DNA of 17,812 bases from Candidatus Omnitrophota bacterium (GCA_043803685.1 JAZDJU010000063.1:1-17812); one strand, 5' to 3'; positions 1 to 17,654 are shown, counted from the first letter of the stretch. Numbers and translations: made by a program. The notes: generated by a model from the letters alone, not told the origin.

Positions 1-1555
1 CGATCGTACTCGTCGTGTACTCCCCGGCCACGTTCACCTGAGAATTCACATTGAATATCGTCGAACTCGTCTGCGTCGCTGTCACCGTCGCCGTGTTGGA
101 TGCCACCGTTGTCCCACGACTCGAACTCACCACAGGACTCGCGAAAAACCTCGAAATATTGGCAAGATTGTAGACAGTCCCTGCCACCACGGGCGTATAA
201 CTCAATCCGTTCGTTATCACGTAAATCTTACCGCTCGTCCCACCCTGTGCCACATCCGACACCACGGTCACTGACGCAACACTTGACTCATTCAACGCGC
301 TGATATCAAAACTGAAATTCTGGTAACCCGTTGAAAGATTTGCCCAAAACTGGGACTTCGCACCTGTCGTATCCACCACCTCCACCTTCACTCGCATCAC
401 ACGGTCCGCCCTCAACGCCATCACCAACGGACTCCCAACATTCCCAGCCGTCCCCTGAAACACATTCGAACTATCGAAATAGCCCCACGAAATCTGCCCC
501 AACGCAAAGTCATCGTTCACATTATCTGCGTCAATTGCCGTTTCCGGTTCCACAGGTAGACTGTATTCAAATGAGAACTTCGTCGAATCATACTGCACAA
601 AATTGTTCGTCCCATTCGCACTCTGCCCAACATAGGTCGTCCCCAAACTCGCCCGGGACGCAGGAGTTGAAGATAACGCCGTGATCGCACTCGCCAAATA
701 CGTCGTCCCTACCACCGTCGTGGGTTCTGCCAAGCGGAACACTTTCCGATCTACAGATTCGTTATAAAGATCTTGGTCGGCGATAAAGGCGTTAAGGTCT
801 TTCCTGGCTTCGGTCTGATCCTTTTCACCAAGAGAATCCTTCACCTTCCTATTGAGCCTCTCGATATATTGCCCGTACGAATAAACTTCCCCCTCATTTA
901 GAAGCCCCGTATTGTCATAGGCATAGACGCCTGCCTCAGTGATCACATATTCTTCATCCCCCGCATGAGCGAGATCGAACTCGGAAGGCCCCGTCACTAA
1001 AGATCCTCCGGTATGCGTATGAGAAACAAAAGTCGCCTTCTCGAGCAACTGACTGGCTGCCGGTAAGATCCCGAGCTCATTTTCATTCCCGGAAGTAAAC
1101 AGAACGATCTCTCCATGAAGCACGATCACGCCGATTTCAAACGGAAGCTCCGCGAGCTTCCTCAGGTCTTCAGTCGTGATCTTTTTTACGATCACCGCTG
1201 TCGCAAATTCAGGCCTCAAAAGATCAAGCGCATCCTGAAAATCATAACGCTCATATTCATATGGAGAAATCTTGGGAGAAATAAAGGACTCCGGCGCCGT
1301 CTCAGGAACTTCCTGAGTGGCAGAAGACAAAGGACTTTGTTCATTCGACAGGAAATCCGTCGTTGTGGCAGGTTTGACCGTAGGGCCGACGAGGTCGGGT
1401 GAAACAGAAGTCGCCGCCACAACGGGTTGGTTGGGATTGGGCTGATATTCCCGCGGGAGAATCTCTCCCGCCGCAAAAACGATCTGATTAAAACAAAAGA
1501 TAAAAGCGGTGATTAATGCGATGGATTTAAGCTGAACGGAAAATGTGACTCTCAT
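1..1555 (-). CDS. Large secreted/surface protein, 5' part only (at least 518 codons, runs off the left edge): signal peptide, JAB/MPN+-like domain, then ~176-aa Ser/Thr/Val-rich repeats
   Basis: Translated by hand; absent from the ORF track because there is no stop in the window. ATG at 1555-1553 with SD GGGAGGAG upstream. N-terminus MRVTFSVQLKSIALITAFIFCFNQIVFA is signal-peptide-like. Frame is open to base 2. Motif FEIG...HTHTGGSLVTGPSEFD. Internal repeat GTxYxxxxIxxxxxxPxxxxSxGTT at residues 283 and 459. Confidence 0.9.
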   Translation of the reverse strand, partial: MRVTFSVQLKSIALITAFIFCFNQIVFAAGEILPREYQPNPNQPVVAATSVSPDLVGPTVKPATTTDFLSNEQSPLSSATQEVPETAPESFISPKISPYEYERYDFQDALDLLRPEFATAVIVKKITTEDLRKLAELPFEIGVIVLHGEIVLFTSGNENELGILPAASQLLEKATFVSHTHTGGSLVTGPSEFDLAHAGDEEYVITEAGVYAYDNTGLLNEGEVYSYGQYIERLNRKVKDSLGEKDQTEARKDLNAFIADQDLYNESVDRKVFRLAEPTTVVGTTYLASAITALSSTPASRASLGTTYVGQSANGTNNFVQYDSTKFSFEYSLPVEPETAIDADNVNDDFALGQISWGYFDSSNVFQGTAGNVGSPLVMALRADRVMRVKVEVVDTTGAKSQFWANLSTGYQNFSFDISALNESSVASVTVVSDVAQGGTSGKIYVITNGLSYTPVVAGTVYNLANISRFFASPVVSSSRGTTVASNTATVTATQTSSTIFNVNSQVNVAGEYTTSTI

Positions 1556-1974
1556 GATCTCCTCCCGATTTCTATTTTCCCGGCGTTTATTTTTTTGGCA
1601 CATCGCATCAGCCACCGCCCTCTTTCCGCATTTTTTAATTCTTCTTTTTTTGAAGATAGCAGATAGTTTAGCAATGGCATACGAAATAAAAGCTTATTTA
1701 AAGTCGTTATCCAGCTGGCGATAGATTTCTTCCTGCTAATGATAGACGCGCGAGAATTTTGCGACGCAACATGCTTTGTTTTATGCAAAGATGCTATGAA
1801 TTGATTGGAGAGCACCACTGAATCTGTCCCCAAAAAACTTTTTTTGAGCCAAAGAGACAGATACTCTTGAGATGGATTAGGGAAAGCGAAGTTGCCCCAG
1901 AGAATACGGACAAGAGGCAGCCCCGTACATAAGGAGCGAGTAGGGATATCAAACCGCGATTTTACAATAGCCAT
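1552..1974 (-). CDS. Possible hypothetical/leader ORF (140 aa)
   Basis: SD GAGGTG 5 nt before the ATG, and the stop overlaps the start of the large ORF (ATGA). No recognisable domain and the composition is not clearly protein-like. Confidence 0.35.
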   Translation of the reverse strand: MAIVKSRFDIPTRSLCTGLPLVRILWGNFAFPNPSQEYLSLWLKKSFLGTDSVVLSNQFIASLHKTKHVASQNSRASIISRKKSIASWITTLNKLLFRMPLLNYLLSSKKEELKNAERGRWLMRCAKKINAGKIEIGRRS

Positions 1975-3310: not shown

Positions 3311-3733
3311 TCATATGCGCTCTCCTGTGATTTCTGATTTTGGGTTAATATCAAAAACCTCATAAAGTGACTGCATAAAACCAATCGCCCGACCTCTATG
3401 CGATGTTTTCACGTTAGGAATCTTCTGGAAAAATCGCTTGAGCCATACGAAGACCCGGCGATACCGCTTCTGCATTGAACCCGCAAGCATGTGGCGATAA
3501 AGATCATCCAAGAAACAGCACACCCCGTTTATGTCCCCCGTTTCGGGTTTATGCTGTTTGACTTGGATGAGAAAGATAAGGGTCGTCATCTTGTTGTTGA
3601 AGTACCTCTTGAACAACTGGCCGAGCAATTGCTCCTTCGACACAAGATGCCGGTCCCGCGGACCACGGATTGCCGTCCCTTTCACTTCTTGGCCCGCTCT
3701 TTCTTTGCTATCGCTTATTTTTAAGTCCATCAT
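3311..3733 (-). CDS. Hypothetical protein (140 aa), probable paralogue of 2747..3220
   Basis: SD-like GAGGA upstream and a candidate promoter at 3754-3782; shares the motif above with its neighbour. Confidence 0.7.
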   Translation of the reverse strand: MMDLKISDSKERAGQEVKGTAIRGPRDRHLVSKEQLLGQLFKRYFNNKMTTLIFLIQVKQHKPETGDINGVCCFLDDLYRHMLAGSMQKRYRRVFVWLKRFFQKIPNVKTSHRGRAIGFMQSLYEVFDINPKSEITGERI

Positions 3734-3919: not shown

Positions 3920-4561
3920 ATGTACGACGAGATGGGAAAAGACCTCGTGGAAAAGAAGATAGGCAAACGACCCGTTCGAGCACCCCAATGGGGGAAGGCC
4001 GTCCAGAGGTTGCTCAAACAAAAATCAGGCTCAAAACATCCCCTGCCCGTAAGCTGGCTTGCCCATAAAACGGGAATCAATGACAAGAACCTTCACAACC
4101 TCATCGGCGGAAGAGTAAGAGATATGTCTTCTGATAAGCTTGTTAAGATCTCAGACGCTTTTGGAATCTCGTTCTCTGAATTCGCAACACGGGCCATGGC
4201 CGAGAATGATGGGAATTTCTTCGTCTGTGGTTTCGACGAGAGAGGTGCCATCAATTACAGTCAACATGGCTTCACCATCCAGTCTTTAAGCCCACAAACA
4301 AACTCTCAGCGGGATTTCTTTTTCGGAAGGATGACTCTTAAACCATTCAAGGAACTTCGTAAATGGCAGTTCAGGCAAGATTCGACCGTGGCGATTTTTG
4401 TGGAATCAGGAACGCTTGAAATGACTTACGGAGATTTACCGACCAGAGAGATCTCTGCCAACGAATCTGCTTATTTTGATGCGGGAGTACCTCACAAGAT
4501 CAAAAACATTGATTCCATTGAGGCAAAACTGTTTATCGTGACCTCCCCTTCTATCTTTTAA
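3920..4561 (+). CDS. XRE-family HTH plus cupin-domain transcriptional regulator
   Basis: N-terminal HTH (WLAHKTGINDKNLHNLIGG...KLVKISDAFGISFSEF) and C-terminal cupin (VESGTLEM...ESAYFDAGVPHKIKN); SD GGAGG. Confidence 0.85.
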   Translation: MYDEMGKDLVEKKIGKRPVRAPQWGKAVQRLLKQKSGSKHPLPVSWLAHKTGINDKNLHNLIGGRVRDMSSDKLVKISDAFGISFSEFATRAMAENDGNFFVCGFDERGAINYSQHGFTIQSLSPQTNSQRDFFFGRMTLKPFKELRKWQFRQDSTVAIFVESGTLEMTYGDLPTREISANESAYFDAGVPHKIKNIDSIEAKLFIVTSPSIF

Positions 4562-5382
4562 ACCTTTTTTCTCAGAAGTTTGTGTCTAACGCATATTTTC
4601 TTGAGAACTTCGACAAGCTTTTCAAAATCTGTTGGCTTTGCAAAAATACGGTGCCCTAATTTTTTAGCCCGCTTCAGCTCTTCAATCCCATCAACCGCGG
4701 TAAATATTACGAAGTCTTTCGGAGAGCAACCTTCACCCGCCTTAAACCGCTCGATCAGCTCATCACCCCACATATAGGGCATCTTGATATCGATAATACC
4801 GATGTCTGGCTCAAACTCACGGGAAATACGTAACGCATCATCGCCTCGGAGCGCACACCGCACCTCAAAATGAGCGTCGCTAACATCTTCCACAAGAGCT
4901 GTTTTGAAAAAATCACAAACTTCTTCTTCGTCATCGACGATCAATATCTTGGCGCAAAGCTCATAGCCGGGCTCAACTTCAACAGGAACTTCTTCTTCAC
5001 CGTTGCTTTCAAAAACCCTCTCGATCACGATATCCAGCTCCTTCAAGCTGTACGGTTTTTTGATGAACGCTTCGATCCCCAAATCTTCGCATTCCTGTTC
5101 TCTATCACAAAAGGCGGTCAGAATAATCACAGGAAGCTTGGGATAATGCCTTCGAATGGACTTTAGCACTTCAATCCCCCCCATGCCGGGCATCTTCAGA
5201 TCGAGAATAACGAGGTTTATTTTTTCGCCGCATTCTTCGACAATTTTCAAGGCTTCCAACCCACTCCCGGCTGTTAGGGTTTCATAGCCGAGAGGTTGGT
5301 ATGTTCTCTTGAGAAACCAGAGCAAATCCTCCTCGTCATCAACAAATAATATTGTCCCCTTAATTCTAGGCGCATCCACCAT
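4558..5382 (-). CDS. Response regulator with two tandem receiver (REC) domains and no output domain
   Basis: REC1 motifs VDDE, LDLKMP, LTA, KKP; REC2 motifs VDDE, IDIKMP, FTA, AKP; SD AGGAGGAG. Confidence 0.92.
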   Translation of the reverse strand: MVDAPRIKGTILFVDDEEDLLWFLKRTYQPLGYETLTAGSGLEALKIVEECGEKINLVILDLKMPGMGGIEVLKSIRRHYPKLPVIILTAFCDREQECEDLGIEAFIKKPYSLKELDIVIERVFESNGEEEVPVEVEPGYELCAKILIVDDEEEVCDFFKTALVEDVSDAHFEVRCALRGDDALRISREFEPDIGIIDIKMPYMWGDELIERFKAGEGCSPKDFVIFTAVDGIEELKRAKKLGHRIFAKPTDFEKLVEVLKKICVRHKLLRKKV

Positions 5383-5394
5383 GTCCGACTCCTC

Positions 5395-5754
5395 CTATTT
5401 CCAATTTAACGCTTTTTCAACCGCTTCCCCGAGTTCCTTTAGGCCGCTCGGCTTGCTGATGCAGAATAAGACCCCGTTCTTTAATGCCTCTTCCTGAACA
5501 TCCTGATAGGCCGTCAGAAGTAGCATCTTCTGGGCAGGAGCCTTCGCGTGCACTTCTTTGATAACGGCAAGACCGCTGACCCCATCTTTTAACCGAACAT
5601 CAATAATAGCCACGTCGGGCTTCTCATTCAGAAGAAGAGAGATGGCTTCCTGCCCATATTGGGTTCTCAGAACTTTGTGCCCCAGATCTTCAAGGTACCC
5701 TCCCACAAAATCCAGAATATCCTCTTCGTCGTCAACTATCAGGACTTTTGCCAT
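5395..5754 (-). CDS. Single-domain response regulator (CheY-like)
   Basis: VDDE, IIDVRL, LTA and SKP motifs; 119 aa. Confidence 0.92.
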   Translation of the reverse strand: MAKVLIVDDEEDILDFVGGYLEDLGHKVLRTQYGQEAISLLLNEKPDVAIIDVRLKDGVSGLAVIKEVHAKAPAQKMLLLTAYQDVQEEALKNGVLFCISKPSGLKELGEAVEKALNWK

Positions 5755-5757
5755 GGA

Positions 5758-7971
5758 CTATACCTCCGTCACGATTGGGATAAAAACACGAAATGTCGTG
5801 CCTTGACCACGCACCGATTCAAGCTCGATATCGCCGTGGTGGGCATCAACCATTTTCCGAATGACATAAAGGCCGAGCCCAGTCCCTTTGACTGCTGTCG
5901 CCTTGGTTGTAAAAAATGGCACAAAAACCTTTTGCTTGTCAGCCTCAGACATGCCAAGCCCGTTATCGGTAACAATGATCTCCACACAACGCTTCTTATT
6001 TCGAAATGCTTCTTTTGCCGAAAGCGCAATGCGGCCTTTTTCTGGGTCCACAGGTTTCTCAAGAGTCCCCAGCGTCCACGCTTCGCGCTTCATTGTAATT
6101 GCATCAAACGCATTATCCAGAAGATTAAAGAGGATTTCCTCTAACTCGCTGAAATTCCCATGAACTTTAGGAAGGCCGTCGGGAATCTCCTCATAAAAAT
6201 CAATTTCAGAAAGCGAGCGTTTACATTCCCACAAGCGGATACAGCTCGTGGCCAATTCTCGAATAAGAACGGGACGAAAGCCTTCGCTTAACCTGCTAAA
6301 ACTCAATAGCCGTCTCACGATTTCGCTGCCATGATCGGAGCTTTTGGCAACACGCTCGCATAGCTTCGCCAAGGTTTCTGCCATTCCCTGCTCATCCTTA
6401 AAATCGTGTTCTTGGAAAAATTTTGTTAGCTTCTTGATTTCCTTCAACTGCGCCGATTCTACGCCAAGCTTGATGACGCAAAAACGATTATTGATTTGGT
6501 GGGCAATTCCTGCGGCCATTGTCCCCAGATCCGCCATCTTTGCCGCTTGAAAAAAGTGGGCTTGTTGCTGTTCAAACTCCGTTAGAAAAACACAATTCTC
6601 AATGGCAAGAGCCGCCTGATTGGCGAGTGTTGTTAGTGTATCAAGATCACTTTCGGTATAAAGGCGCTTTGATTTCTTGTCACCCAACACGACGAACCCA
6701 AGCAATCTCTCCTGAACAAAACTTGGCACAACCACCGCCGCATCTAGCCTTTCCATTTCCCGGATCACCTCATCGGGAATCTCCAAGGACGCAGCCCCCT
6801 GAGCCCGGATTTCCTCAAGAATTAACGGTTCTTTGGTATCCTGCATGCGTTGAATCAAGTCCGTGGCTTCGGAAACAATATCACTTCCCTGTCTGCGGTG
6901 ATCGCCCCGGGCAGCTTTGCAGATAAACTGTTTACCTTCTCTATCCCAAAGAAAAATGCGGGCGTGAGTAATTCGGATAGTCTTAGTAAGAATATGGACC
7001 ATTAACCTCAACAAACGGCTCAAGTCCTTGATGAGAGTCATTCCTCTCGATGCTTGAAGTAAGGTCTGCTGATAGGCTTTCTGCTCTCTCAAAAGGACCG
7101 CCTCAGCCCTGCGCTGAACGGTCATGTAAATAAATGGACCGACGAAGCTCAGCAGACTGAATAACCCGGCAGGCAATAGCCACCAGTTAATACCTAATTG
7201 CCTCTCAAGAAGACTGCGCATTTGAAAAATCAGGAAAGCAGGTATCCCGATAATAACGCAATATATCAAAACAAATATACCAGTCCGCGTCACGGCAAGC
7301 CGAACATCCATTAAGCGATACTTAATGATGACGTACGCGGCAATCCCGACATATCCTGAAACTAAAATATTTCCGACAGGTGGTATGGGAATTCCATACC
7401 ACAAGATGTAATTGGTTGCTCCACCTATCCATCCAATGGCCGTAGCCAGCAAAATGTACCGCATCTGATTGCGGACCATTCCAGACGATTTCCTAAATTC
7501 TTGATAAATAAGTACTGTCCCGTAAATAACGAGGCCGACCCAGAAAAATAAAAAGGGGTGAAATAACAGGCCCGGATCCGGCCAAAACTTAAAACCCAAC
7601 TTAGGACTCACCCCCGAAACAAAAAGCGGTGTAAAGCAAAGAACTGCCGAGCAGATAGCAAAAAAATAAGACCATCTTAATATCTTCTTTCGGCTGTTTA
7701 CTTGGTTCAAAAACACCAGAATGTGATGCAAGTAGAAAATAGGGATAAAGCTCGCCCCAACCATTAGCCCTCTTGAGTAGAATAGCGCCGTCTGATAATC
7801 GCTTGCATTTTGCCATAAAAAATAGGCAAAACTCCACACAGCGACAGAAAGGGAGAAAAAGAAATAGGTGATGTTTTTGAGGTTGCGATGACTTTGACGA
7901 ATAACGAAAATTCCAAAAAACAGACTCGTCACGCCATTGATCAAACTGCTAACGATGCAGTAAATTACCAT
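5758..7971 (-). CDS. Membrane sensor histidine kinase (HisKA_7TM-like membrane region, GAF, HisKA, HATPase)
   Basis: Multiple N-terminal hydrophobic helices; GAF-like segment (VVVPSF...LLGFVVLGDK...LANQAALAIEN); H-box AHQINN; N-box NLLDNAFDA; DNGLG; FVPFFTTK; GTGLGL. Confidence 0.95.
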   Translation of the reverse strand: MVIYCIVSSLINGVTSLFFGIFVIRQSHRNLKNITYFFFSLSVAVWSFAYFLWQNASDYQTALFYSRGLMVGASFIPIFYLHHILVFLNQVNSRKKILRWSYFFAICSAVLCFTPLFVSGVSPKLGFKFWPDPGLLFHPFLFFWVGLVIYGTVLIYQEFRKSSGMVRNQMRYILLATAIGWIGGATNYILWYGIPIPPVGNILVSGYVGIAAYVIIKYRLMDVRLAVTRTGIFVLIYCVIIGIPAFLIFQMRSLLERQLGINWWLLPAGLFSLLSFVGPFIYMTVQRRAEAVLLREQKAYQQTLLQASRGMTLIKDLSRLLRLMVHILTKTIRITHARIFLWDREGKQFICKAARGDHRRQGSDIVSEATDLIQRMQDTKEPLILEEIRAQGAASLEIPDEVIREMERLDAAVVVPSFVQERLLGFVVLGDKKSKRLYTESDLDTLTTLANQAALAIENCVFLTEFEQQQAHFFQAAKMADLGTMAAGIAHQINNRFCVIKLGVESAQLKEIKKLTKFFQEHDFKDEQGMAETLAKLCERVAKSSDHGSEIVRRLLSFSRLSEGFRPVLIRELATSCIRLWECKRSLSEIDFYEEIPDGLPKVHGNFSELEEILFNLLDNAFDAITMKREAWTLGTLEKPVDPEKGRIALSAKEAFRNKKRCVEIIVTDNGLGMSEADKQKVFVPFFTTKATAVKGTGLGLYVIRKMVDAHHGDIELESVRGQGTTFRVFIPIVTEV

Positions 7972-7983
7972 GAAGGAGGCTTT

Positions 7984-9015
7984 TTATGACGGGTTCTGAG
8001 CAACAACATACTGAATGATGCCCTGTTGCTCAAATATCGTTCTCAGATTTTTCTCATCAAAGCCCGCCTCAAGAAAAATTTTTCTAAACTCTTCTTCGCT
8101 TCGATAAATCAACTGCCACTCTCCAACCCATTCCAAAAAATAGAAGGACGGGTTTTGCTGCTTTTCCCCAAAGTTTGCAATAAATAACACGCCGTTCGGC
8201 TTCAGGAGTTCTTTTAGCGCCCTAATCAGCCTCTGCGCCAAACGCTCGTCCAGATAATCAAAAAGGCCCAATGAAAATATTAAATCGTACCGTTCATTCG
8301 GGATGGATTTTTTAAAAGCAATTCTCACGGCATTTTCTTTATAAAAATTTACAAATTTCAAGTTGCTACCCAAAAGAGTCTTTGCGTATTCAATAGCGTT
8401 TTCGTCTTGGTCATAACAATCAATGGAAAGATTGCGTTGATCGGAAGGAATTTCTTCAAGCATCTCGTTAATGTCTCTACAAGGGCCAGAAGCAAGGTCC
8501 ATTATTTTTATAGCCTTGCCGTTATTTGATTTTATCAAAGACCCGATAAATTTCTTGATGTCTTCTTTCCGATTGCGAATAGCAAAGGCCGCTGCCGACA
8601 TTTGCGCGTAATTGTCAAAGAGGCGGGCAAAACCTTCCGTCCTGGGGTCATTTCGATAAATATCATCGATGATCTTGAAATCCCCCGCATAGCCATACGG
8701 TTTCTTGAGGCTCCAACAAATGTGTTCGCCATGCAAAAAATCAGCCCGAAGATGGTTGATGAAAATTCTTTTTAGTTTATAAACGCTCACCTCATCGTTT
8801 TTGGACAATCGCTCTTGTTCAAAAACCATAAGATCTCGGAAAATGGCGTTAATTTCCTGATTAAAAACGCTCTGATATTTTCCCCAATCACTGGGATGGG
8901 CATCCAAATGAGCTTTAAGCTCTGCGGCAACTTCTCGATATTTCTTGATTCGTTTTCTCAGAGATGCTTCCTGAGACTTAAGAAGAGAATTGATTTTTGT
9001 CATTGACTCGTTCAA
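7984..9015 (-). CDS. Class I SAM-dependent methyltransferase, PhcB-like (KPxGYAGD family)
   Basis: Motif I MDLASGPC, YDQD, YDLIFSLGLFDYL, LKPNG, plus KPYGYAGDFKIIDDIY. The real start may be ATG 9003. The PhcB likeness is from memory of the motif, not from a search. Confidence 0.88.
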   Translation of the reverse strand: MNESMTKINSLLKSQEASLRKRIKKYREVAAELKAHLDAHPSDWGKYQSVFNQEINAIFRDLMVFEQERLSKNDEVSVYKLKRIFINHLRADFLHGEHICWSLKKPYGYAGDFKIIDDIYRNDPRTEGFARLFDNYAQMSAAAFAIRNRKEDIKKFIGSLIKSNNGKAIKIMDLASGPCRDINEMLEEIPSDQRNLSIDCYDQDENAIEYAKTLLGSNLKFVNFYKENAVRIAFKKSIPNERYDLIFSLGLFDYLDERLAQRLIRALKELLKPNGVLFIANFGEKQQNPSFYFLEWVGEWQLIYRSEEEFRKIFLEAGFDEKNLRTIFEQQGIIQYVVAQNPS

Positions 9016-9389
9016 ACTCCCAGAGCTTTTTTGACTTCTTCCAGAAAAAGCATTAGGTCGAAGGGCTTCAAAATGTAAGCTTGCGGCTTTAATGTCATCG
9101 CCCCTTCTTCAGCCGCTTGATCCGCATAACCTGTCATAAAAATTCTGGGGGCATGCTTTACTCCCCGTTTTGTCATTAGATCCAAAATTCGCCTTACGGT
9201 TTCGATACCATCAATCCCCGGCATCCTAATGTCACTGACAATAAGATCGAAATCAATGGCTTCTGCCATGGCCATGGCTTCATCGCACCGTTTAGCCACC
9301 AACACCTCGTATCCACTTTTTTCAAGAGCAAGCACAAGACTTTTCGTGATCAACTCTTCGTCGTCAATTACGAGAATTTGTTTTTTCAT
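9012..9389 (-). CDS. Single-domain response regulator (CheY-like)
   Basis: IDDE, SDIRMPG, MTG and LKPF motifs. Confidence 0.92.
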   Translation of the reverse strand: MKKQILVIDDEELITKSLVLALEKSGYEVLVAKRCDEAMAMAEAIDFDLIVSDIRMPGIDGIETVRRILDLMTKRGVKHAPRIFMTGYADQAAEEGAMTLKPQAYILKPFDLMLFLEEVKKALGV

Positions 9390-10000: not shown

Positions 10001-10396
10001 TTATTGACTCTCTCGCTCTGCGGAGTATTCATCTAACGCATCTCTTCCGAGCTGGCTAATTGTCTTCCCCGTTAGCTCGGACATGGATCTCAGCCATTCG
10101 GCCTGGTCTTTTCGAAGAGTTACGGATACGGTCTTCAGACCCAGGATCGAATGCTTCTGGTATGACGGGAGCGGCTGAGGGATTATTTTCTTTTTATTCT
10201 GATTCAACCAAAAAGTATCAACGGCTTTTCGAGATATGTTGGATCGGTCAGAATGTGTCCTTTTGACCTCATTTTCGAGCTTTTTCAACTGTTCCTGGGT
10301 CAATCCAAACAGAACCGGAAGGAGTCTCCCGGCCTCCCCGTAATACTTCTTAACTCCTTTGCCTCCCAATAGGTTACGGCGAACAGGCGGAAGCAA
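10001..10396 (-). CDS. Tandem ribbon-helix-helix (CopG-like) DNA-binding protein; start uncertain
   Basis: C-terminal KTVSVTLRKDQAEWLRSMSELTGKTISQLGRDALDEY is a classic RHH pattern. N-terminal PVLFGLTQEQLKKLENEVKRTHSDRSNISRKAVDTF is similar. Only TTG starts are available. Confidence 0.65.
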   Translation of the reverse strand: MLPPVRRNLLGGKGVKKYYGEAGRLLPVLFGLTQEQLKKLENEVKRTHSDRSNISRKAVDTFWLNQNKKKIIPQPLPSYQKHSILGLKTVSVTLRKDQAEWLRSMSELTGKTISQLGRDALDEYSAERESQ

Positions 10397-10403
10397 TTGC
10401 GTT

Positions 10404-11210
10404 TTAAAATGGAGTGTAATTCCATTTCGTATCCGCCATGGGTGAGATGTGGATCGTCCCGGTTTTCATGAACTGGTTACGAACCTCGGGCGCGACATCG
10501 CTCCTGAGGCCAAGCACCAAAGCCTTCAGGATCGCGGCATGAGGCGCGGCATAAAGTTTATCGATCAGCGCTGCTAGCTTTCGACGTGTTTGGGCCAGGA
10601 TCCTTCCCGGCAAAAACTTCCCTCCCTCACGGACCACGCGAACACTTTTTTTCCCGATCGTCTGAAAGACCGCGTGAATATTTTTTTGCGCCAGAAAGTC
10701 CCCATAATCAAACTCTCCAGGATTCAGGACCTGCCGGGGCGCGCTGAGTGTCCCGTAAAGCCAGAGTTCATCTCCCACCTGCGGGAGCACAGGCGCCTGG
10801 AGTAAAAAGGTCTGAACCTCACCGCTTACTTTTCGAAACTTCCTGCGAGAGCCCTCTTGCCTTGAGATCGAGCGCGCTTTAAGGACCAAAGAGACGGTAG
10901 CCTTCTTTCCGCGCGTCTTGATCTCAGGTAATGCGCTCACGACTCCACGGAGCGTGATCCTCTCCGGACCCGCGAAGTTCCGAACGGCATTGGCCGGCAC
11001 ATGCGCGTCAAGTTGCGCCCAAAGGATCCCCGCGCATGCCAAAAGAAGGACAAAAAGGGGCCCGAAATATCTCCAGCCGCGTAAAAACCAAAGAAGGAGT
11101 ATGCCCAAACCCAGTATCCACGCCAGCCCGGCAGCTGGAATGTTCCCGTATTTTGACGCGAAGAGACCAACAGAGAACCCAAGAGCGATCCATAAAAATG
11201 GAAGATTCAT
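10404..11210 (-). pseudogene. comEC: ComEC/Rec2 competence protein, N-terminal fragment (TM helices, DUF4131/OB region, start of the Competence domain), truncated
   Basis: LNPGEFDYGDFL and AILKALVLGLRS...NQFMKTGTIHI. The expected LAISG continuation is replaced by SPMADTKWNYTPF and a stop. At 268 aa it is much shorter than a full ComEC. Confidence 0.85.
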
Positions 11211-11397: not shown

Positions 11398-11877
11398 CTA
11401 TAGAATGAGTTGGAGATCTCTTCCCTGAACATCCAACCGGACCTCCCCATCGCCAATAGCCTTGACGATAGCATGTCCCGGGAGAGAATCACCAATGCCG
11501 ACGATCATATCATTGATTACAGCCATGGACTCGCCATTGATGCGCGTAATACCCGTGAGACGAAAGATAGAGCCGGAAATGATCCGTAACGGCGCATGGG
11601 GAATAGGCAGCATCGTCTTGGCCGGCATTTTCGCCTGAGAATGAGCATACTGACTCCCCGCCCAAACAAGCCCAACGACAAAACACATCAGCAAAACTCC
11701 CAAAGAGATCATCCAAAAAATCTTCCGGCGCCTGGCATAGGATTCCTGAACCTGACTGAGCTCCCTTTCGAGCGCTGCCCCCATCGGATCGCGATCCAAT
11801 ACGCTTGGTCCGGCACCTGTCACTTTCGTCTCTTTCACACGATGGGTCTTTTCTAACGCTTGTTGGATCAAACTCAT
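11398..11877 (-). CDS. ExeB/GspB-like (T2SSB/MshK-like) single-TM protein
   Basis: N-terminal MSLIQQALEK, one TM helix, C-terminal LTGI...AVIND..VGIGDSL...VKAI...VRL; ATGA overlap with the exeA-like gene. Confidence 0.7.
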   Translation of the reverse strand: MSLIQQALEKTHRVKETKVTGAGPSVLDRDPMGAALERELSQVQESYARRRKIFWMISLGVLLMCFVVGLVWAGSQYAHSQAKMPAKTMLPIPHAPLRIISGSIFRLTGITRINGESMAVINDMIVGIGDSLPGHAIVKAIGDGEVRLDVQGRDLQLIL

Positions 11878-12683
11878 ACAAACACCCCCTCAAGATCGGC
11901 TTCGGCGCACTCCACCAAAACAGGATCGATGATGCGAACATTTCGGGTATAGGCGGCCAGTAATGCACGGTCCGCCAGGACGTTAATAACCCTCGGGACC
12001 CCCGAGGAGAGCTCATAGATGCGCTGCATGGCCTCAGCCGTAAAAAAATTCTCACTGGCCCCCGCCACATTCAATCGATGCGCGATATACTGCTGGACCT
12101 CTTCCAAGCTCAGCTCCGGAAGGTGACAACGCACGGTAATGCGTTGGCGGAGCTGTTTGAGGTCCGGACGCTTGAGAAGGTCCTTCAACTCGGGCTGTCC
12201 CATCAAAATGATCTGCAAAAGTTTTTGTGTGGCAGTCTCAAGATTCGAGAGAAGGCGGATCTGCTCCAGAGCGCGTGGCGGTAAAAGCTGGGCCTCATCA
12301 ATGATCAGCACCGCATTAAACCCCTTGGCACTTTCTTCAAGAAGGAAACGGTTCAGACAATCAAAATAGTCCTTCCGGCGCCGCGACTTGGGCTTCAGGC
12401 CAAAATCCTCGACGATCTCCTGCAATAGCTCGAGCTCAGAAAGTTTCGGATTAAAAACAAGCGAACTATGAACATTCTCACCCAACTGCCGGAGAAACGC
12501 GCGCGAAAGCGTCGTCTTCCCCGCCCCGATCTCGCCGGTGATCTGGATGAACCCCGTTCGCCGCTCCACTCCGTAACACATCGCCGAAAGTGCCGCCTGA
12601 TGATGCCGGCTCAAATAGACAAAGCGCGGGTCCGGAGTCATATTGAACGGAGGCTGCGCTAAACCAAAAAAAGCTTCATACAT
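11874..12683 (-). CDS. ExeA/GspA-family AAA ATPase (ATPase domain only)
   Basis: MYEAFFGLAQPPFNMTPDPRF N-terminus (ATG 12683 preferred over 12725); Walker A GEIGAGKTT; Walker B LIIDEAQ; GQPEL; QLRQRI; GVPRVIN. Confidence 0.92.
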   Translation of the reverse strand: MYEAFFGLAQPPFNMTPDPRFVYLSRHHQAALSAMCYGVERRTGFIQITGEIGAGKTTLSRAFLRQLGENVHSSLVFNPKLSELELLQEIVEDFGLKPKSRRRKDYFDCLNRFLLEESAKGFNAVLIIDEAQLLPPRALEQIRLLSNLETATQKLLQIILMGQPELKDLLKRPDLKQLRQRITVRCHLPELSLEEVQQYIAHRLNVAGASENFFTAEAMQRIYELSSGVPRVINVLADRALLAAYTRNVRIIDPVLVECAEADLEGVFV

Positions 12684-12764
12684 GATCCACGCCCTTTCCC
12701 AATGAATGGGAGCTCTGTCGTTCACGTATTCGCAAAAAAGAAGTCGGTTTAAAACGATCTCGTG

Positions 12765-14798
12765 TCATCGTAGCTCTAAAATACGACCGTCCTTACGGGC
12801 AACATGGATATTAAGAGGCTGACGCCCCTCTCTTGAGTAAGCGACCTTCTCCCCGTTCATCAGATCGCGAACGATCATCTTCCCTTTGATCTTAGAAAGC
12901 GCCGGAAGGAAAATGGCAGCACTCTTGTCTTCGTTGCCGTTATTGACCACCACCAGGAAATACCGCTTACCGCGACTAAAGAGCGCCGTTTTGACGTCCC
13001 TCGTCACAGTGTAGGCAAACAGGGGTACCTTGAGATAGCTCAATACACCGAGCACTAGACTCGGCACCGGCTCCACCCCTAAGTGAATGATCTTTCCCTT
13101 GCCGATCTTTTTGATGTAACCGACCGTTTGTGTTCCATAGGTCCCGAGATCCGCCTGGATCTTTTCACATCCTTCAGCATTAAAAATATAGACCGAACTG
13201 TTGACCGTGATCGGATCCGACCCCTTATCGAAGGTCAACGAAAATTGCCGTTTGAATTCGAAGAGCGTCCGCTCCGGTTCCTCGAACCCCACGATCTGAT
13301 ACGGTCTAAAATTATCGTCCTTGCGAGGAAAAGAGCGAAATGCTACCAAAGTCCCGCCATTTTCCACATAACGCCGCAGGTTCTCATGCGCGGCCTTCTC
13401 AAGCCACTGATTGCCCGAATAGAAAAGGACCTTCTTCTGTGGAATTTCACGGCGAGGGTCGCACACGTCATAGTCCACGTCGCCCTGGTAAAGCGCGGAG
13501 AGAATAGGGCTGTCGTGCGTCAACGTCCGGGCGGCATACTGGAGAGGATTAAAAGTAACGCTGATCTCGGTCAATTTCTTCAGAGAAGTAGGCTTGAGCT
13601 CTTTAAAAGCACTGACGATCTGTTTAAAAACGTCATAAAGCTCACCGCGCACCCGCCCCCATTCATTGATCGGCGACATATACCAGTTATCGCGATTCAC
13701 CAGCATGTACCAGTTCCACCCTTTGACGCCAGCAAGGAACGCGGAAAGACAGATCATCCGGTAATGATTGGGTGTGAGTACGCTTGTTTCGTAATGACGC
13801 CCGTGCCAGATCCCGGATTGGAACTCCGCGATAAACGGAAGCTTGGAAACGCTCGCGAGATAACGGATCTTGTCACACAATTTTCGATGCTCAAATTCAT
13901 CCTCTTTAAGTTCATTGGAAGGATAAATGTCCAACCCGACAGCATCCCCGACATCTTGTAAAGCTGACCAATCGTGTGCGTAAAAAAACGGGTACGTGTT
14001 CAAATAGATCGGCACATCGGCTCCAAGATCACGGTACATCTTGATACTTTGATTCGCGACTTCCTTAGAATACCCATACTTGAACTTGAAATAGTCGAGG
14101 TGCCGTTTGAGTTCCTTATCCCCTTTAAGCGGAAGTCCCGTTTCGTGGGCAAGCATGGTGGCGATAAAAGGCGACGCCTCGTGGAAAGACGCGTAAGTCG
14201 TACCCCAGGAATCGTTCAGCGCTGAAAGATTCGACTTATAAAGATCCCGTATGAAATCTTGAAAAAGACCCGGCTTCCCCGAAAGCCCGTACTGATGCCC
14301 GAAAATATCCGGCCAGGGATCGATCTCATTGTCGGCCTGGAGCATCAGGATATGCCCGTTCTTGCGCGAAGCGAGATATGGCAAGAAGACCTTACTGACT
14401 TGCTTCAAATATTCCTGGGCGTAAGACAAAAACTTGGGATGAAGTCGATGATATTTGTAGGCGTAATCAGGAACACCATCGCGCGGCCATTCGCTATAAA
14501 TGTAGGGCCCCGGGCGAAGGATCAGCCAAAAACCTTCCTTGCGGGTTAATTCGAGAAAACCTTTGAGATTGCGAGCTTCGTCAGTCTTCCCGTTGAAATC
14601 AAAGTGCCCGCGCTTATATTCGTGAAAATCCCAAGGGACATAGGTGGAGATGATCTCGATCCCCATCTCGCGGACGCGACGAAGCGCCTCCCGCCAATAA
14701 TTGGGATTGAGACGCCAGTAATGCACCTCGCCGGATATCAGAGGAACTTCTTGCTTCCCGACAAAGATCTTTTGGTTCTTGATCTCGACTTTAGTCAT
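12765..14798 (-). CDS. GH35/GH42-type glycoside hydrolase (beta-galactosidase family)
   Basis: [27 protein letters not shown], acid/base QADNE, nucleophile AEFQSG and a C-terminal trimerisation-like domain. ATG 14798 overlaps the end of leuS. No signal peptide. Confidence 0.88.
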
Positions 14799-17250
14799 CC
14801 GCCACCACAAGGTTGACCGTACGCCCCGGAACGACAATAATTTTTTTCACGACCTTCCCGACGAGAAGTTCTTTCACGCGCGGGTGCTCCAGGGACGCTT
14901 GTTTGACCGCATCTTCGCTCTGACTACGAGAAACGACCATTTTCGCGCGTACTTTACTCCCTACCAGAATAGCGATCTCGACCTCGTCCTCGACAAGAGA
15001 CTTCTCATCGTATTCAGGCCATTTCTCATAAGTAAGCGTGTTGGCGTGCCCCATCCGTCGCCAGAGCTCCTCGGCCACGTGAGGCGCGAGCGGTGCCAGA
15101 AGAAGGAGGAATTTTTCGAGCACTTCGCGCGTATGGTCCTGCTCCTGCCCCCTCTCGTTCACAAAGATCATCAAGGCTGATATCGCCGTATTGAACCTCA
15201 ATCCCTCAAGATCTTCCGTCACTTTTTTGACCGCCTTGTGGAGCGTCTTTAGCTCAGCGGCATCTGGTAGACGCTCAACGATCCTCGCGTGCAACTTGTC
15301 GTCTTTATCGATGAAAAGCCGCCACACTTTCCCAAGAAACCGGTAGACGCCTTCCACTCCGGAATTCGACCACGGCTTGGTCATCTCCAAGGGCCCCATG
15401 AACATTTCGTAAAGCCTGAGACTGTCGGCTCCGCACTGAGCGATCATTTCATCGGGATTCACGACATTCCCGCGCGACTTGGACATCTTCTGACTGTCTT
15501 CGCCGAGGATCATGCCCTGATTCGTAAGCTTCTGGAACGGCTCAAGCGTGGACACAACGCCGATGTCATAGAGCACCTTGTGCCAAAACCTTGAATAGAG
15601 CAAATGAAGGACCGCGTGCTCCGCGCCACCGACATAGAGGTCCACATTCATCCAGTATTTTTCCTTCAAGGGATCGACCGCAGACTTCGCGTTCTTCGGA
15701 TCGATATACCGGAGGTAATACCAACATGAGCCCGCCCACTGAGGCATGGTATTGGTTTCCCGCATCGCCTCCCCACCACACTTGGGGCACTTCGAACGGA
15801 GCCAATCCTTCGCCTTGGCAAGCGGCGGCTCCGCGTTGCCGGTCGGCGTATAATCTTTCAACTCGGGAAGTTTGAGCGGCAGTTCGCTTTCAGGAATAAG
15901 GACAGGGCCGCACTTCGCGCAATGCACGACCGGGATCGGCTCGCCCCAGTAACGCTGACGGCTAAAGAGCCAGTCGCGAAGCTTGTACTGGACCGCCTCT
16001 TTGCCGAATTTCTTCTCCTCGAGCCATTTCGTGATCCTTTGCTTGGCCTCAGGTGTCGGGAGTCCGCTGATAAAATCAGAATTAACGCTCGTGCCATCGC
16101 CAACAAATCCTAACGACTCTTTTCCCTCAGGCGCCTGTACCACGATATCAACCGGAAGTCCGTAGACCCTGGCAAATTCCAGATCGCGGGTATCGTGTCC
16201 CGGAACAGCCATGATCGCCCCGGTGCCGTAGCCCATGAGAACATAATCCGCGACCCACACCGGGATCTTCTTGCCATTCACGGGATTGATCGCATAGGAC
16301 CCAGTGAACACTCCCGATTTTTCTTTGGCGAGATCGGTACGGTCGAGATCGGACTTGTGCGTCGCAGTCGCTACGTAATCTTCAACAGCTTTCTTCTGGG
16401 CTAGCGTCGTGATCTTCGCGACCATCGAATGCTCGGGAGCCAAAACCATGTAGGTCGCTCCGAAAAGCGTGTCAGGGCGTGTGGTAAAGACACGAATGAC
16501 GTCCGCGCCATTTTCTAATTTAAAATCGACTTCCGCGCCAGTGGACTTTCCGATCCAGTTGCGCTGCATCTCTTTGATCGACTCGGTCCAATCCAGAAGG
16601 TCCAGATCCTTCAAAAGGCGCTCGGCATAGGCGGTGATCTTGAGGATCCACTGACGAAGCGGACGGCGGTAAACATCCTTGTGACCTTTCCGCTCGCAAG
16701 TTCCGTTCGCGTCCACTTCCTCGTTCGCGAGGACCGCTTTACAACCGTCGCACCACCACACCGGGATCTCGGACTCGTAGGCCAGGCCTTTTTCGAAAAG
16801 CTTCATGAAGATCCACTGAGTCCAGCGGAAATAATGGGGATCGGTCGTATCGATCTCACGCTCCCAGTCATAACTGAAGCCGACCTGGCGGATCTGTCGT
16901 TTGAAGGTCTCGATATTCTTCCGGGTGGTTTCGCGGGGATGCGTGCCCGTCTCAATGGCGTATTGTTCGGCAGGTAGCCCGAAAGCGTCCCACCCCATGG
17001 GATGCAGAACATTGAACCCGCGCATCCTCTTATAGCGGCAGACAATATCCGTTGCGGTGTAGCCCTCAAGATGGCCTACATGAAGGCCGGAACCGGAAGG
17101 ATAAGGGAACATATCAAGAACGTAATACTTGGGTTTATCGCCACCGGGTTCCCCTGGATCCGGAGAGCGGAAGGTCCGATGCTCAGCCCAGTAGGCCTGC
17201 CATTTTTTCTCGATCTCGTCGAAAGGATACGCCTTAAAACCGCTGGCCAT
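14791..17250 (-). CDS. leuS: Leucine--tRNA ligase
   Basis: [14 protein letters not shown] (HIGH motif), FTTRPDT and [12 protein letters not shown] editing motifs, [11 protein letters not shown] and KMSKS; 819 aa. Confidence 0.99.
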
Positions 17251-17279
17251 GAACGGACCGTCCCTTAGAGGTAAAATAC

Positions 17280-17363
17280 TGCGGAGAGAGAGAGTCGAAC
17301 TCTCATGGTATTGCTACCGCTGGATTTTGAGTCCAGTGCGTCTGCCAGTTCCGCCATCCCCGC
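17280..17363 (-). tRNA. tRNA-Leu (anticodon CAA), CCA not encoded
   Basis: Minus strand GCGGGGATGGCGGAACTGGCAGACGCACTGGACTCAAAATCCAGCGGTAGCAATACCATGAGAGTTCGACTCTCTCTCTCCGCA: acceptor stem, CTGGA/TCCAG anticodon stem, long variable arm and GTTCGA T-loop. Confidence 0.97.
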
Positions 17364-17654
17364 AAAATCGCTCATTCAATATCATGCAGAAGTTTACTGC
17401 CTTGTTGCTAATAACATCCCCTCGAAACGTCCGCCGGAGGCCCTTTATGTCTATTTCATCGCTCACGAGGCCCAAGATGACGCCGGGTGCTATGAGTGAA
17501 AGATACTAGGCGAGTCCGGTCATTTTTTCAAGGACAGATTCAGATTTTTCAGCACGGCCTTTAAAAATCGTGGCAAAACGTTGGATGTTTTGCGCGGAGC
17601 GGAGTTTTCTGCAAGCCTGCCCCATTTTTTTGTTGCACACTTTTCGCCGATTGA

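Follow-up and report, generated by a model that had tools for sequence, protein, structure and literature searches.

A conserved signalling cassette, which would work like the phcBSRQ quorum-sensing operon of Ralstonia without being orthologous to it, is the best explanation we can give for a group of genes in a stretch of DNA of 17,812 nucleotides from a Candidatus Omnitrophota bacterium (GCA_043803685.1 JAZDJU010000063.1:1-17812; this whole stretch is called the window, and positions are counted from its first letter). At the centre of the cassette stand two genes on the minus strand, one coding for a class I S-adenosylmethionine (SAM) methyltransferase (MT; 7984-9015) and the other for a polytopic membrane histidine kinase of 737 aa (5758-7971). 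The pair is part of a longer minus-strand array of five genes in the order RR1, MT, kinase, RR2, RR3, in which RR1, RR2 and RR3 are receiver proteins. The analysis establishes that the MT is a member of the superfamily marked by the motif KPxGYAGD (PhcB-type), that its gene and that of a polytopic kinase share a conserved operon, and that MTs of this kind have repeatedly been coupled to signalling input modules. Going further, we tentatively propose that the MT is a small-molecule enzyme gated by a receiver and that its product, a methylated hydrophobic compound, is sensed by the adjacent kinase, a reading that has a reasonable chance of being right while falling somewhat short of an even one.

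RR1 is a stand-alone receiver of 125 aa, encoded directly upstream of the MT gene (9012-9389, minus strand; Pfam Response_reg, 79.2 bits), and its phospho-acceptor residues are all kept: D9, D10, D53, T86 and K108 vary little or not at all among 19 orthologues. If translation of the MT started at a TTG codon, which the RR1 stop overlaps, the protein would have 343 aa. An ATG at 9003, beginning 8 nt after the RR1 stop, is the more likely start; the resulting 339-aa form matches the database copies of the protein (P0001). Exactly 12 nt (AAAGCCTCCTTC) separate the MT stop codon TAA from the ATG of the kinase, and the intergenic gaps further downstream are of 3 nt between kinase and RR2 and of 12 nt between RR2 and RR3. 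RR2 (5395-5754, minus strand; Pfam Response_reg, 69.1 bits) is another stand-alone receiver, of 119 aa, whose acceptor Asp lies in the context IIDVRL, and RR3 (4558-5382, minus strand) is a protein of 274 aa made up of two receiver (REC) domains without an output domain (Pfam Response_reg in two stretches, 128.8 bits). Judged by Pfam, all three proteins are receiver-only. From this arrangement the five genes are predicted to form one operon and to be cotranscribed.

The MT and the kinase are judged to be real genes and not chance open reading frames (ORFs) because of the number of their homologues: 673 word-sharing homologues of the MT were found at E<=1e-3, and an exhaustive scan for its relatives returned 4522 cluster representatives at E<=1e-3, 2608 of them at E<=1e-10. 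The 120 homologues listed have identities of at least 50% and, where named, mostly Omnitrophota titles. In Pfam, the MT matched Methyltransf_31, Methyltransf_12, Methyltransf_25, Methyltransf_23 and Methyltransf_11 at or above their cut-offs, and PF12147 (Methyltransf_20) with 30.9 bits against a cut-off of 21. NCBIfam gave sub-threshold matches only (BioC, Cfa, CheR and UbiG), and sequence searches of the PDB returned generic SAM-domain matches only. An AlphaFold 2 (AF2) model computed from a 20-sequence alignment (pLDDT 91.4, pTM 0.88) contains three long N-terminal helices (residues 2-93), a loop bearing the motif, and Rossmann strands and helices which alternate from residue 169 on. Used as a query in Foldseek, the model returned more than 500 matches to MTs. 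The best solved structure was 3ocj (303 columns including the N-terminal helices, TM-scores of 0.59/0.66), an uncharacterised 'possible exported protein' of Bordetella parapertussis that the family profile matches in the Rossmann part only (E 1.6e-3), followed by SgvM, the C-methyltransferase (C-MT) of CurJ, DnrK, PhzM and a farnesyl pyrophosphate (FPP) methyltransferase. Sequence identity to 3ocj, SgvM, CurJ C-MT, DnrK and PhzM is 13-18%. Every top match of known function is a small-molecule MT. Sequence and model together place the enzyme among the small-molecule-type class I SAM methyltransferases of the KPxGYAGD superfamily.

This placement bears on the idea that the MT modifies a protein of its own pathway, be it the kinase, a receiver or a partner, in a CheR-like adaptation or tuning step. 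Such a role would suit an operon in which all the other genes present in the window encode signalling proteins, and weak matches to CheR were indeed obtained (Pfam, 19.5 bits; NCBIfam, 17.1 bits; PDB entry 5ftw, E 8e-4), one plasmid relative even being annotated as 'chemotaxis protein CheR'. The CheR scores, however, are under the cut-offs of 27 bits in Pfam and 435 bits in NCBIfam and come from the generic SAM-binding part only, and neither a CheB-type demethylase nor helices like the methylation helices of methyl-accepting chemotaxis proteins were found in the window or in 12 surveyed loci. As the nearest folds are small-molecule MTs and relatives of the enzyme sit on the acyl carrier protein (ACP) of a polyketide synthase (PKS) and on a ketoacyl-ACP synthase III (KAS III), we consider methylation of a pathway protein improbable.

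The kinase starts with a membrane sensor (residues 1-285; 7117-7971, minus strand) that consists of a HisKA_7TM bundle and two more helices. It is followed by a GAF domain (residues 316-459; 6595-7026, minus strand; Pfam GAF_3, GAF and GAF_2) and by the transmitter core, with H-box and HATPase_c (5758-6594, minus strand). The match to HisKA_7TM (PF16927) reached 57.4 bits against a cut-off of 28.6 over residues 11-223, and Pfam placed HATPase_c at residues 608-733. With His491 in the H-box KMADLGTMAAGIAHQINN (6487-6513, minus strand) and with the N, G1, F and G2 boxes present, the transmitter is intact. Hydropathy indicated about nine membrane segments between residues 6 and 285, joined by loops of 5-16 aa save for one stretch of 42 aa, which is filled by a further helix in the structure model. 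Because the loops are short and the 42-aa stretch is modelled as helix, the kinase is held to lack a large periplasmic domain. The AF2 model of residues 1-300 (13 sequences, pLDDT 84.4) has seven helices, a short beta-hairpin (118-133) which holds the invariant W130-P131, and two further helices; invariant intramembrane residues include N12, W46, Y50, W53, W130, P131, G183, G184, T186, N187, W191, N201 and D222. Solved structures matching the membrane model at E<=1e-3 were not found. Homology to G-protein-coupled receptors (GPCRs) was considered and discarded, the best matches being weak (E 4e-3 or worse, TM-scores 0.37-0.48), and we treat the resemblance of the model as generic seven-helix likeness. 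Among the sensor domains listed for kinases of bacteria and archaea is HisKA_7TM, with no ligand given in the available part of that source (PMC5847659); the window kinase differs from other HisKA_7TM kinases in the two further helices and the GAF domain that follow the bundle, and in its specific linkage to an MT. An earlier note on this DNA had pointed out the motif KPYGYAGDF, the 12-bp gap and a polytopic kinase of 7TM-GAF type without a large periplasmic domain, and all of these features were borne out.

The same note had made its reading depend on a conserved linkage of such MTs to seven-transmembrane (7TM) kinases. The linkage was followed in a survey of 80 loci, with one genome per species, of which 33 are Omnitrophota-type loci with a full-length MT (L001-L031, L033 and L035; some of their record titles read Planctomycetia or Elusimicrobia) and the remaining 47 are distant. 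Loci were taken as informative downstream with at least 1.5 kb after the MT gene (n=29) and upstream with at least 500 nt before it (n=28). In 28 of the 29 downstream-informative loci, a HisKA_7TM kinase ORF lies on the same strand and starts between -150 and +400 nt from the MT end, L029 being the sole exception; the linkage is thus conserved in Omnitrophota-type loci. GAF was detected in 25 of these 28 kinases, and the MT-kinase order is kept at MT identities down to 42%, among varied flanking genes. Within 7 kb of the 47 distant MTs no HisKA_7TM kinase was found; hybrid kinases lie directly downstream of the MT in L049, L052 and L058 and on both sides of it in L074.

Upstream of the MT, a receiver ORF ends at a distance of at most 400 nt in 20 of the 28 informative loci, and the receiver is of the RR1 type in 18. 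No upstream receiver was found in the other eight (L012, L013, L016, L019, L020, L021, L026 and L029). L012 carries, instead of RR1, a PilZ domain fused to the MT, and in L013, L016 and L021 the gene directly upstream of the MT encodes a FadL/TodX outer-membrane channel, which in L009 is found farther upstream. Downstream of the kinase, RR2 is also present in L001-L003, L005 and L006, and RR3 has orthologues in L002, L005, L006 and L007. Seven loci (L008, L009, L010, L015, L024, L033 and L035) contain a second HisKA_7TM kinase upstream of RR1. One metagenome-assembled genome (MAG) has two RR1-MT-kinase cassettes, L011 (JAQTSA010000025.1) and L028 (JAQTSA010000168.1), with identities of 65% for RR1, 46% for the MT and 34% for the kinase, an uneven divergence of the sequences as would be expected if the sensor part changes fastest. 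In a further locus, L030, the MT is split over two overlapping ORFs (477-1693) by a frameshift or an assembly error, and the kinase downstream is intact.

It could be argued that the two genes are neighbours by chance, an ordinary metabolic methyltransferase having come to lie inside a two-component operon without any shared function. No experiment ties the genes together, and scans for promoter-like and terminator-like signals around the operon gave scores no better than those of shuffled sequence. A chance adjacency, however, sits badly with a gene order that holds in all informative loci but one, at such low MT identities and between differing flanks, with gaps of at most 12 nt or overlapping genes, and with fusions of the MT to signalling domains that recur independently. 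We regard it as very improbable.

These fusions are varied. PilZ-MT fusions are common among the relatives, including close ones at 46-47% identity, and so are fusions of the MT to a cyclic-nucleotide (cNMP)-binding domain, which fall into the phc-like group of the tree described below. KAS III is fused to the MT in one relative, P0262. Three clusters (P0388, P0389 and P0390) have about six N-terminal membrane helices, a PAS and a GGDEF domain and a C-terminal MT that is 37-39% identical to that of the window, KPYGYAGD being kept in one of them; their membrane part is MASE8 in the precomputed Pfam annotation of the source. On the Enterobacter ludwigii plasmid NZ_CP134637.1 (L083:6643-9777), an MT of the superfamily is the last domain of a protein with the order ketosynthase (KS), linker, ACP, MT. 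The protein belongs to a three-gene PKS cluster of the trans-acyltransferase (trans-AT) type on a conjugative IncFII plasmid, adjoining Tn3-family transposase and recombinase genes. Another plasmid, p42e of Rhizobium etli CFN42 (L084), encodes a superfamily member of 347 aa divergent from a gene with an EAL domain, a cyclic di-GMP (c-di-GMP) phosphodiesterase; the 347-aa protein is widespread on Rhizobium plasmids and chromids, with 125 Rhizobium plasmid records. By their domain composition, the fusions would put the MT downstream of inputs from signalling within the cell and in the vicinity of acyl chemistry.

Neighbouring genes were surveyed with Pfam on 144 ORFs from 12 loci and with phmmer over the 33 Omnitrophota-type loci. 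Eight of the 33 (L008, L009, L010, L015, L024, L029, L033 and L035) encode a dehydrogenase-like protein of about 520 aa in which SRPBCC ('polyketide cyclase/lipid transport') is fused to a NAD(P)-binding domain, and this gene precedes the second HisKA_7TM kinase, RR1 and the MT. An aminotransferase and a GNAT gene come after the fusion gene in L010, and in L024 the cassette is flanked by PlsC-like, LpxL-like and monogalactosyldiacylglycerol (MGDG)-synthase-like genes. GAF-HD-GYP proteins are encoded in ten of the 33 loci, FadL in four and a PlsC-like acyltransferase in three. Together with the ACP and KAS III fusions, the lipid-related neighbours fit a hydrophobic, acyl-type substrate for the MT, as far as gene content can suggest one.

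Fusions and neighbours also lend themselves to another explanation, namely that the two-component system has the MT as its output. The 7TM-GAF kinase would then sense a cue of different origin, in the membrane or the cytoplasm. The MT would be activated by RR1 once this is phosphorylated (in the fused relatives, by c-di-GMP or cNMP) and would methylate a membrane lipid, an envelope component or a metabolite, by which the cell adapts. PilZ, cNMP-binding and membrane-PAS-GGDEF domains are classic inputs, and the fusions put the MT downstream of them; genes for lipid biosynthesis (PlsC-like, LpxL-like, MGDG-synthase-like, SRPBCC-dehydrogenase) flank some cassettes; the cytoplasmic GAF of the kinase could take a different ligand; and in several loci RR1 is preceded by a second HisKA_7TM kinase. 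But an MT acting as output leaves unexplained why the kinase follows the MT in 28 of 29 loci, even in those that have no RR1 (L012, L013, L016, L020, L021 and L026), and the FadL gene upstream of the MT in three loci better fits a hydrophobic molecule that crosses the outer membrane than a fixed lipid. In addition, the sole characterised chemistry of the superfamily in the literature found, as far as the available text goes, is the synthesis of a diffusible signal. We therefore see the MT as output as a possible but rather doubtful explanation, and continue with the proposal that its product is a signal for the adjacent kinase.

For the comparison with Ralstonia, an operon of Paraburkholderia graminis on plasmid pPHS1_P (L081), found by tblastn of a 481-aa relative against plasmids, was used as a stand-in for PhcB, and Ralstonia PhcB itself is not in the comparison; among the matches listed in the searches for relatives there was no protein of Ralstonia. 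L081 encodes an MT of 468 aa, a kinase of 445 aa and receivers of 134 and 344 aa. Within the available parts of the articles cited here and below, its gene order matches that of phcBSRQ (PMC2842291); its MT has Arg22, as expected from the R22 of PhcB that is conserved in Paraburkholderia homologues (PMC6989110); the H-box His of its kinase is at position 233, against His230 in PhcS (PMC11960443); and the length of its MT fits the spacing of the mutation coordinates of strain GMI1000 (PMC6989110). This agreement fits a phc-type operon that may stand in for PhcB and is no proof of identity.

The window MT and the L081 MT aligned in BLASTP with 26% identity over 230 aa (E 3e-21) and in hhalign with a probability of 99.8% (E 6e-30; window residues 70-333 to 188-455). 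Both have the motifs KPxGYAGD, RNR, GLFDY and W..R, and a helical domain before the Rossmann fold. A still longer alignment was obtained with long forms of 480 aa from Bdellovibrionota, Gammaproteobacteria and others (hhalign probability 100%, E 4.5e-54; window residues 14-341 to 148-480). These long forms have the helical domain, the Rossmann fold and the motifs of the window MT and, within the same chain, an N-terminal domain that is PilZ-like and some 147 aa long, whereas the window has a separate receiver gene at that position; judged by the alignment, the window MT corresponds to a long form minus this domain. The long forms belong to the phc-like clade and not to that of the window, and a characterised one was not found in our literature search. 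In one source, 7 of 120 listed matches of the long forms bear a name with the label 3-hydroxypalmitic acid methyl ester. P0035, which is 57% identical to the window MT, is named 'extracellular factor (EF) 3-hydroxypalmitic acid methyl ester biosynthesis protein' (one of the 120 homologues listed for the window MT), a wording that we take to be the KEGG definition of phcB.

A tree was computed from the MT core (window residues 98-343), cut from the stored proteins and from the ORFs of the loci and kept where 190 or more positions matched. It contains 254 rows: the window, every sixth of P0002-P0120 (20), 134 of 150 representatives, every sixth of P0271-P0387 (19), 76 of the 80 loci and four plasmid loci. 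FastTree, midpoint-rooted, with an uncertain root and with L081-L084 on long branches, gave three groups. The first has 136 leaves (support 99), short enzymes mostly from Bacteroidota-titled loci. The second has 35 leaves (support 94) and comprises L081, the long forms, the cNMP-binding fusions, the PKS domain and enzymes of Rhizobium and Pseudanabaena. The third has 83 leaves (support 68) and unites the 61-leaf Omnitrophota clade of the window (support 98) with a PilZ-fused clade. When 70 rows sampled from the FastTree groups were analysed with IQ-TREE, 18 rows of the Bacteroidota type came to lie on one side of a branch with a Shimodaira-Hasegawa-like approximate likelihood ratio test (SH-aLRT) value of 91. 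In sum, the window MT and the phc-type MTs belong to the same superfamily and to neighbouring clades and are not orthologues.

Across the 254 cores, the K, P, G, Y, G and D of KPxGYAGD (residues 105-113 in the window as KPYGYAGDF; 8677-8703, minus strand) are each kept in 88-100% of the rows in all three clades, and they are kept in L081. Outside the SAM site, the signature comprises K105, P106, G108, Y109, G111, D112, R147, N148, R149, G250, L251, F252, D253, Y254, W300 and R305. Its residues are in the majority in all three clades (71-100%) and present in L081, and the conserved arginines could hold a carboxylate. The link to phc MTs that the earlier note had drawn from KPxGYAGD thus goes back to a real superfamily signature, of which RNR, GLFDY and W..R are also part. 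The likeness to PhcB stands in so far as the window MT is a relative of the phc-operon MTs; as a closer kinship it does not, the enzyme lying in a separate clade with 26% core identity and, compared with L081, without the N-terminal domain. The likeness of the kinase to PhcS did not hold for the sensor: only the core (residues 465-732) aligned to the L081 kinase (29% identity, E 1e-19). The two cores have an H-box of one type, KMAxxGTxxAGxxHxxNN, and the sensor parts are unrelated.

Set against the known system, the cassette thus combines similarities of layout with differences in its parts. The phcBSRQ quorum-sensing operon is described from the Ralstonia solanacearum species complex, with homologues in Cupriavidus and Paraburkholderia. 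PhcB enzymes have about 467 aa, with R22 in the N-terminal domain, and make methyl 3-hydroxymyristate or methyl 3-hydroxypalmitate; PhcA, of the LysR type, is the final regulator. In both systems, an MT gene is followed by a membrane histidine kinase gene and then by receivers without DNA-binding domains (PMC11960443, PMC2842291); PhcR, PhcQ and ChpA are receiver-only as described (PMC11960443), and so are RR1, RR2 and RR3 of the window. For Ralstonia, too, control of the synthase by a receiver has been suggested (PMC6989110). Besides its clade, the window MT differs from that of L081 by having some 150-190 N-terminal residues fewer. The sensor of the cassette is a HisKA_7TM-GAF kinase of 737 aa, in contrast to the 445-aa kinase of L081, whose membrane part matches Pfam MASE8 weakly, the family also seen in P0388-P0390. 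The cassette further has an extra receiver gene upstream of the MT and occurs in a different phylum, and a PhcR-type receiver-kinase hybrid and a LysR regulator were not found in the window with Pfam.

In the mechanism that we propose, the MT would O-methylate a hydrophobic metabolite, probably an acyl compound or carboxylate, drawn from general metabolism. The product would partition into the membrane or cross the outer membrane through FadL-type channels, and would be detected by the kinase, either inside its 7TM bundle or by way of GAF. RR1, RR2 and RR3 would then be phosphorylated by the kinase, and RR1 might bind and switch the MT, closing a feedback loop. RR1, which would be translationally coupled to the MT and whose place is taken in relatives by a fused PilZ or cNMP-binding domain, is proposed as the gate of the MT. 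As output, contacts between proteins, a turnover of c-di-GMP (related loci contain a GAF-HD-GYP gene) or an XRE-cupin regulator could serve. In Ralstonia, signal synthesis is altered in a mutant of the receiver gene phcQ, and the authors propose that the receiver acts on PhcB (PMC6989110, available part).

Several observations weigh against this proposal. The window MT lacks the N-terminal domain of the phc type, nothing matching the first 147 or more residues in hhalign; it falls outside the phc-like clade in FastTree, and in IQ-TREE a branch with SH-aLRT 86 sets 22 phc-like rows apart from it. The membrane sensor parts of its kinase and of the L081 kinase do not align. The lipid-related neighbours are confined to a minority of the loci (3-8 of 33), and in the window itself a FadL gene, an acyl-handling gene, an export gene or an output of the LysR/PhcA type was not found by Pfam or in the phmmer census. 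For no member of the MT clade has a product, substrate or ligand been reported. The true input could lie in the GAF domain or in a property of the membrane, in which case the MT would be an output rather than the source of a signal. Finally, many Omnitrophota are regarded as tiny or host-dependent cells, for which sensing of a population is not obviously useful.

Around the operon, a plus-strand gene for a regulator with an XRE-type helix-turn-helix (HTH) and a cupin domain (3920-4561; Pfam Cupin_2 and HTH_26) is convergent with RR3, their 3' ends overlapping by 4 nt. It has orthologues in L001, L002, L005 and L007, and the same architecture occurs beside the cassette in L009 and L020. Next to it, a conserved hypothetical ORF of 140 aa (3311-3733, minus strand) without a Pfam match accompanies the cassette in the closest relatives, where it adjoins the XRE-cupin gene (phmmer matches in L001, L002 and L005). 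On the other side of the operon lie a ribbon-helix-helix (CopG-like) ORF (10001-10396, minus strand) and a ComEC-like gene that is cut to its N-terminal DUF4131 part of 268 aa (10404-11210, minus strand). From about 0.52, G+C content drops to 0.40-0.47 between roughly 1500 and 10400, and the break in ComEC, coinciding with this drop (from ~0.52 to ~0.43), suggests a point of rearrangement or insertion. Integrases, transposases and convincing flanking repeats were not found around the low-G+C stretch in the window, and a search of the window for tRNAs and Rfam families gave a single match, a tRNA-Leu(CAA) far from the cassette (17279-17364, minus strand). The assignment of the pair to accessory DNA in the earlier note is therefore weakly supported: the lower G+C and the truncated ComEC-like neighbour agree with it, but mobility genes, flanking repeats and an adjacent tRNA were not found, and the cassette is conserved across the phylum with varying flanks.

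Beyond ComEC, a gene for an AAA_22 ATPase (283 aa) and one for a 159-aa protein with one hydrophobic segment overlap by 4 nt (11398-12725, minus strand), presumably resembling ExeA/ExeB-type accessory pairs of secretion or pili. The higher-G+C side of the window, which is housekeeping-like, carries a GH35/GH42-type beta-galactosidase, a leucyl-tRNA synthetase (819 aa) and the tRNA-Leu (12765-17364, minus strand). At the opposite end, a large protein of at least 538 aa runs off the window (2-1615, minus strand); it has an N-terminal hydrophobic signal-like segment and Thr/Ser/Val-rich repeats and matches no Pfam or NCBIfam family. The idea that the cassette controls this large secreted protein found no backing, since none of the 80 loci has a homologue within 7 kb of the MT. 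Some 3.3 kb upstream of the cassette in one Omnitrophota MAG there is an ORF of 1313 aa (L014:299-4237) with RHS repeats and a region of the TcdB-middle/N-terminal type.

In our literature search, which covered papers other than those in subscription journals and the supplements of bioRxiv, no paper named PF12147 or Methyltransf_20, K19620, 'PhcB-like' or 'phcB homolog(ue)'. A search for Omnitrophota together with quorum sensing returned nothing relevant, a wastewater quorum-sensing paper being silent on PhcB, and no paper was found that pairs PilZ with such an MT domain, two PilZ surveys mentioning CheR/MapZ only. In the available parts of the literature found, HisKA_7TM appears in domain censuses only, and signalling by methyl 3-hydroxy fatty acids is confined to Ralstonia and close relatives. 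What we rate as new is that a phc-type synthase and sensor logic would operate in another phylum, that its sensor domain is a different one, and that a receiver would have been added as a gate. More speculative, and on the whole unlikely to hold in all its parts, is the wider suggestion that Omnitrophota, which are uncultured and often ultra-small, use a self-made methylated lipid-like signal, produced by a PhcB-type synthase and read within the membrane by a GPCR-shaped 7TM kinase, and that the relatives gated by REC, PilZ, cNMP-binding or GGDEF domains are widespread, unrecognised signal synthases under the control of second messengers and phosphorylation.

With 4522 cluster representatives, the MT superfamily is far larger than the Ralstonia-type signalling described so far. 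The cassette is a testable pair of one soluble enzyme and one kinase; it could yield a new signal molecule and the first ligand of a HisKA_7TM domain, in a phylum without a cultured model or described cell-cell signalling. The recurrent replacement of RR1 by PilZ, cNMP-binding or GGDEF domains suggests a general rule, by which intracellular signalling switches the synthases. Such a rule would bear on the regulation in Ralstonia, where PhcQ is proposed to act on PhcB (PMC6989110, available part). If the wider suggestion holds true, gated PhcB-type MTs would link intracellular second-messenger networks to extracellular or membrane-borne signals in many phyla.

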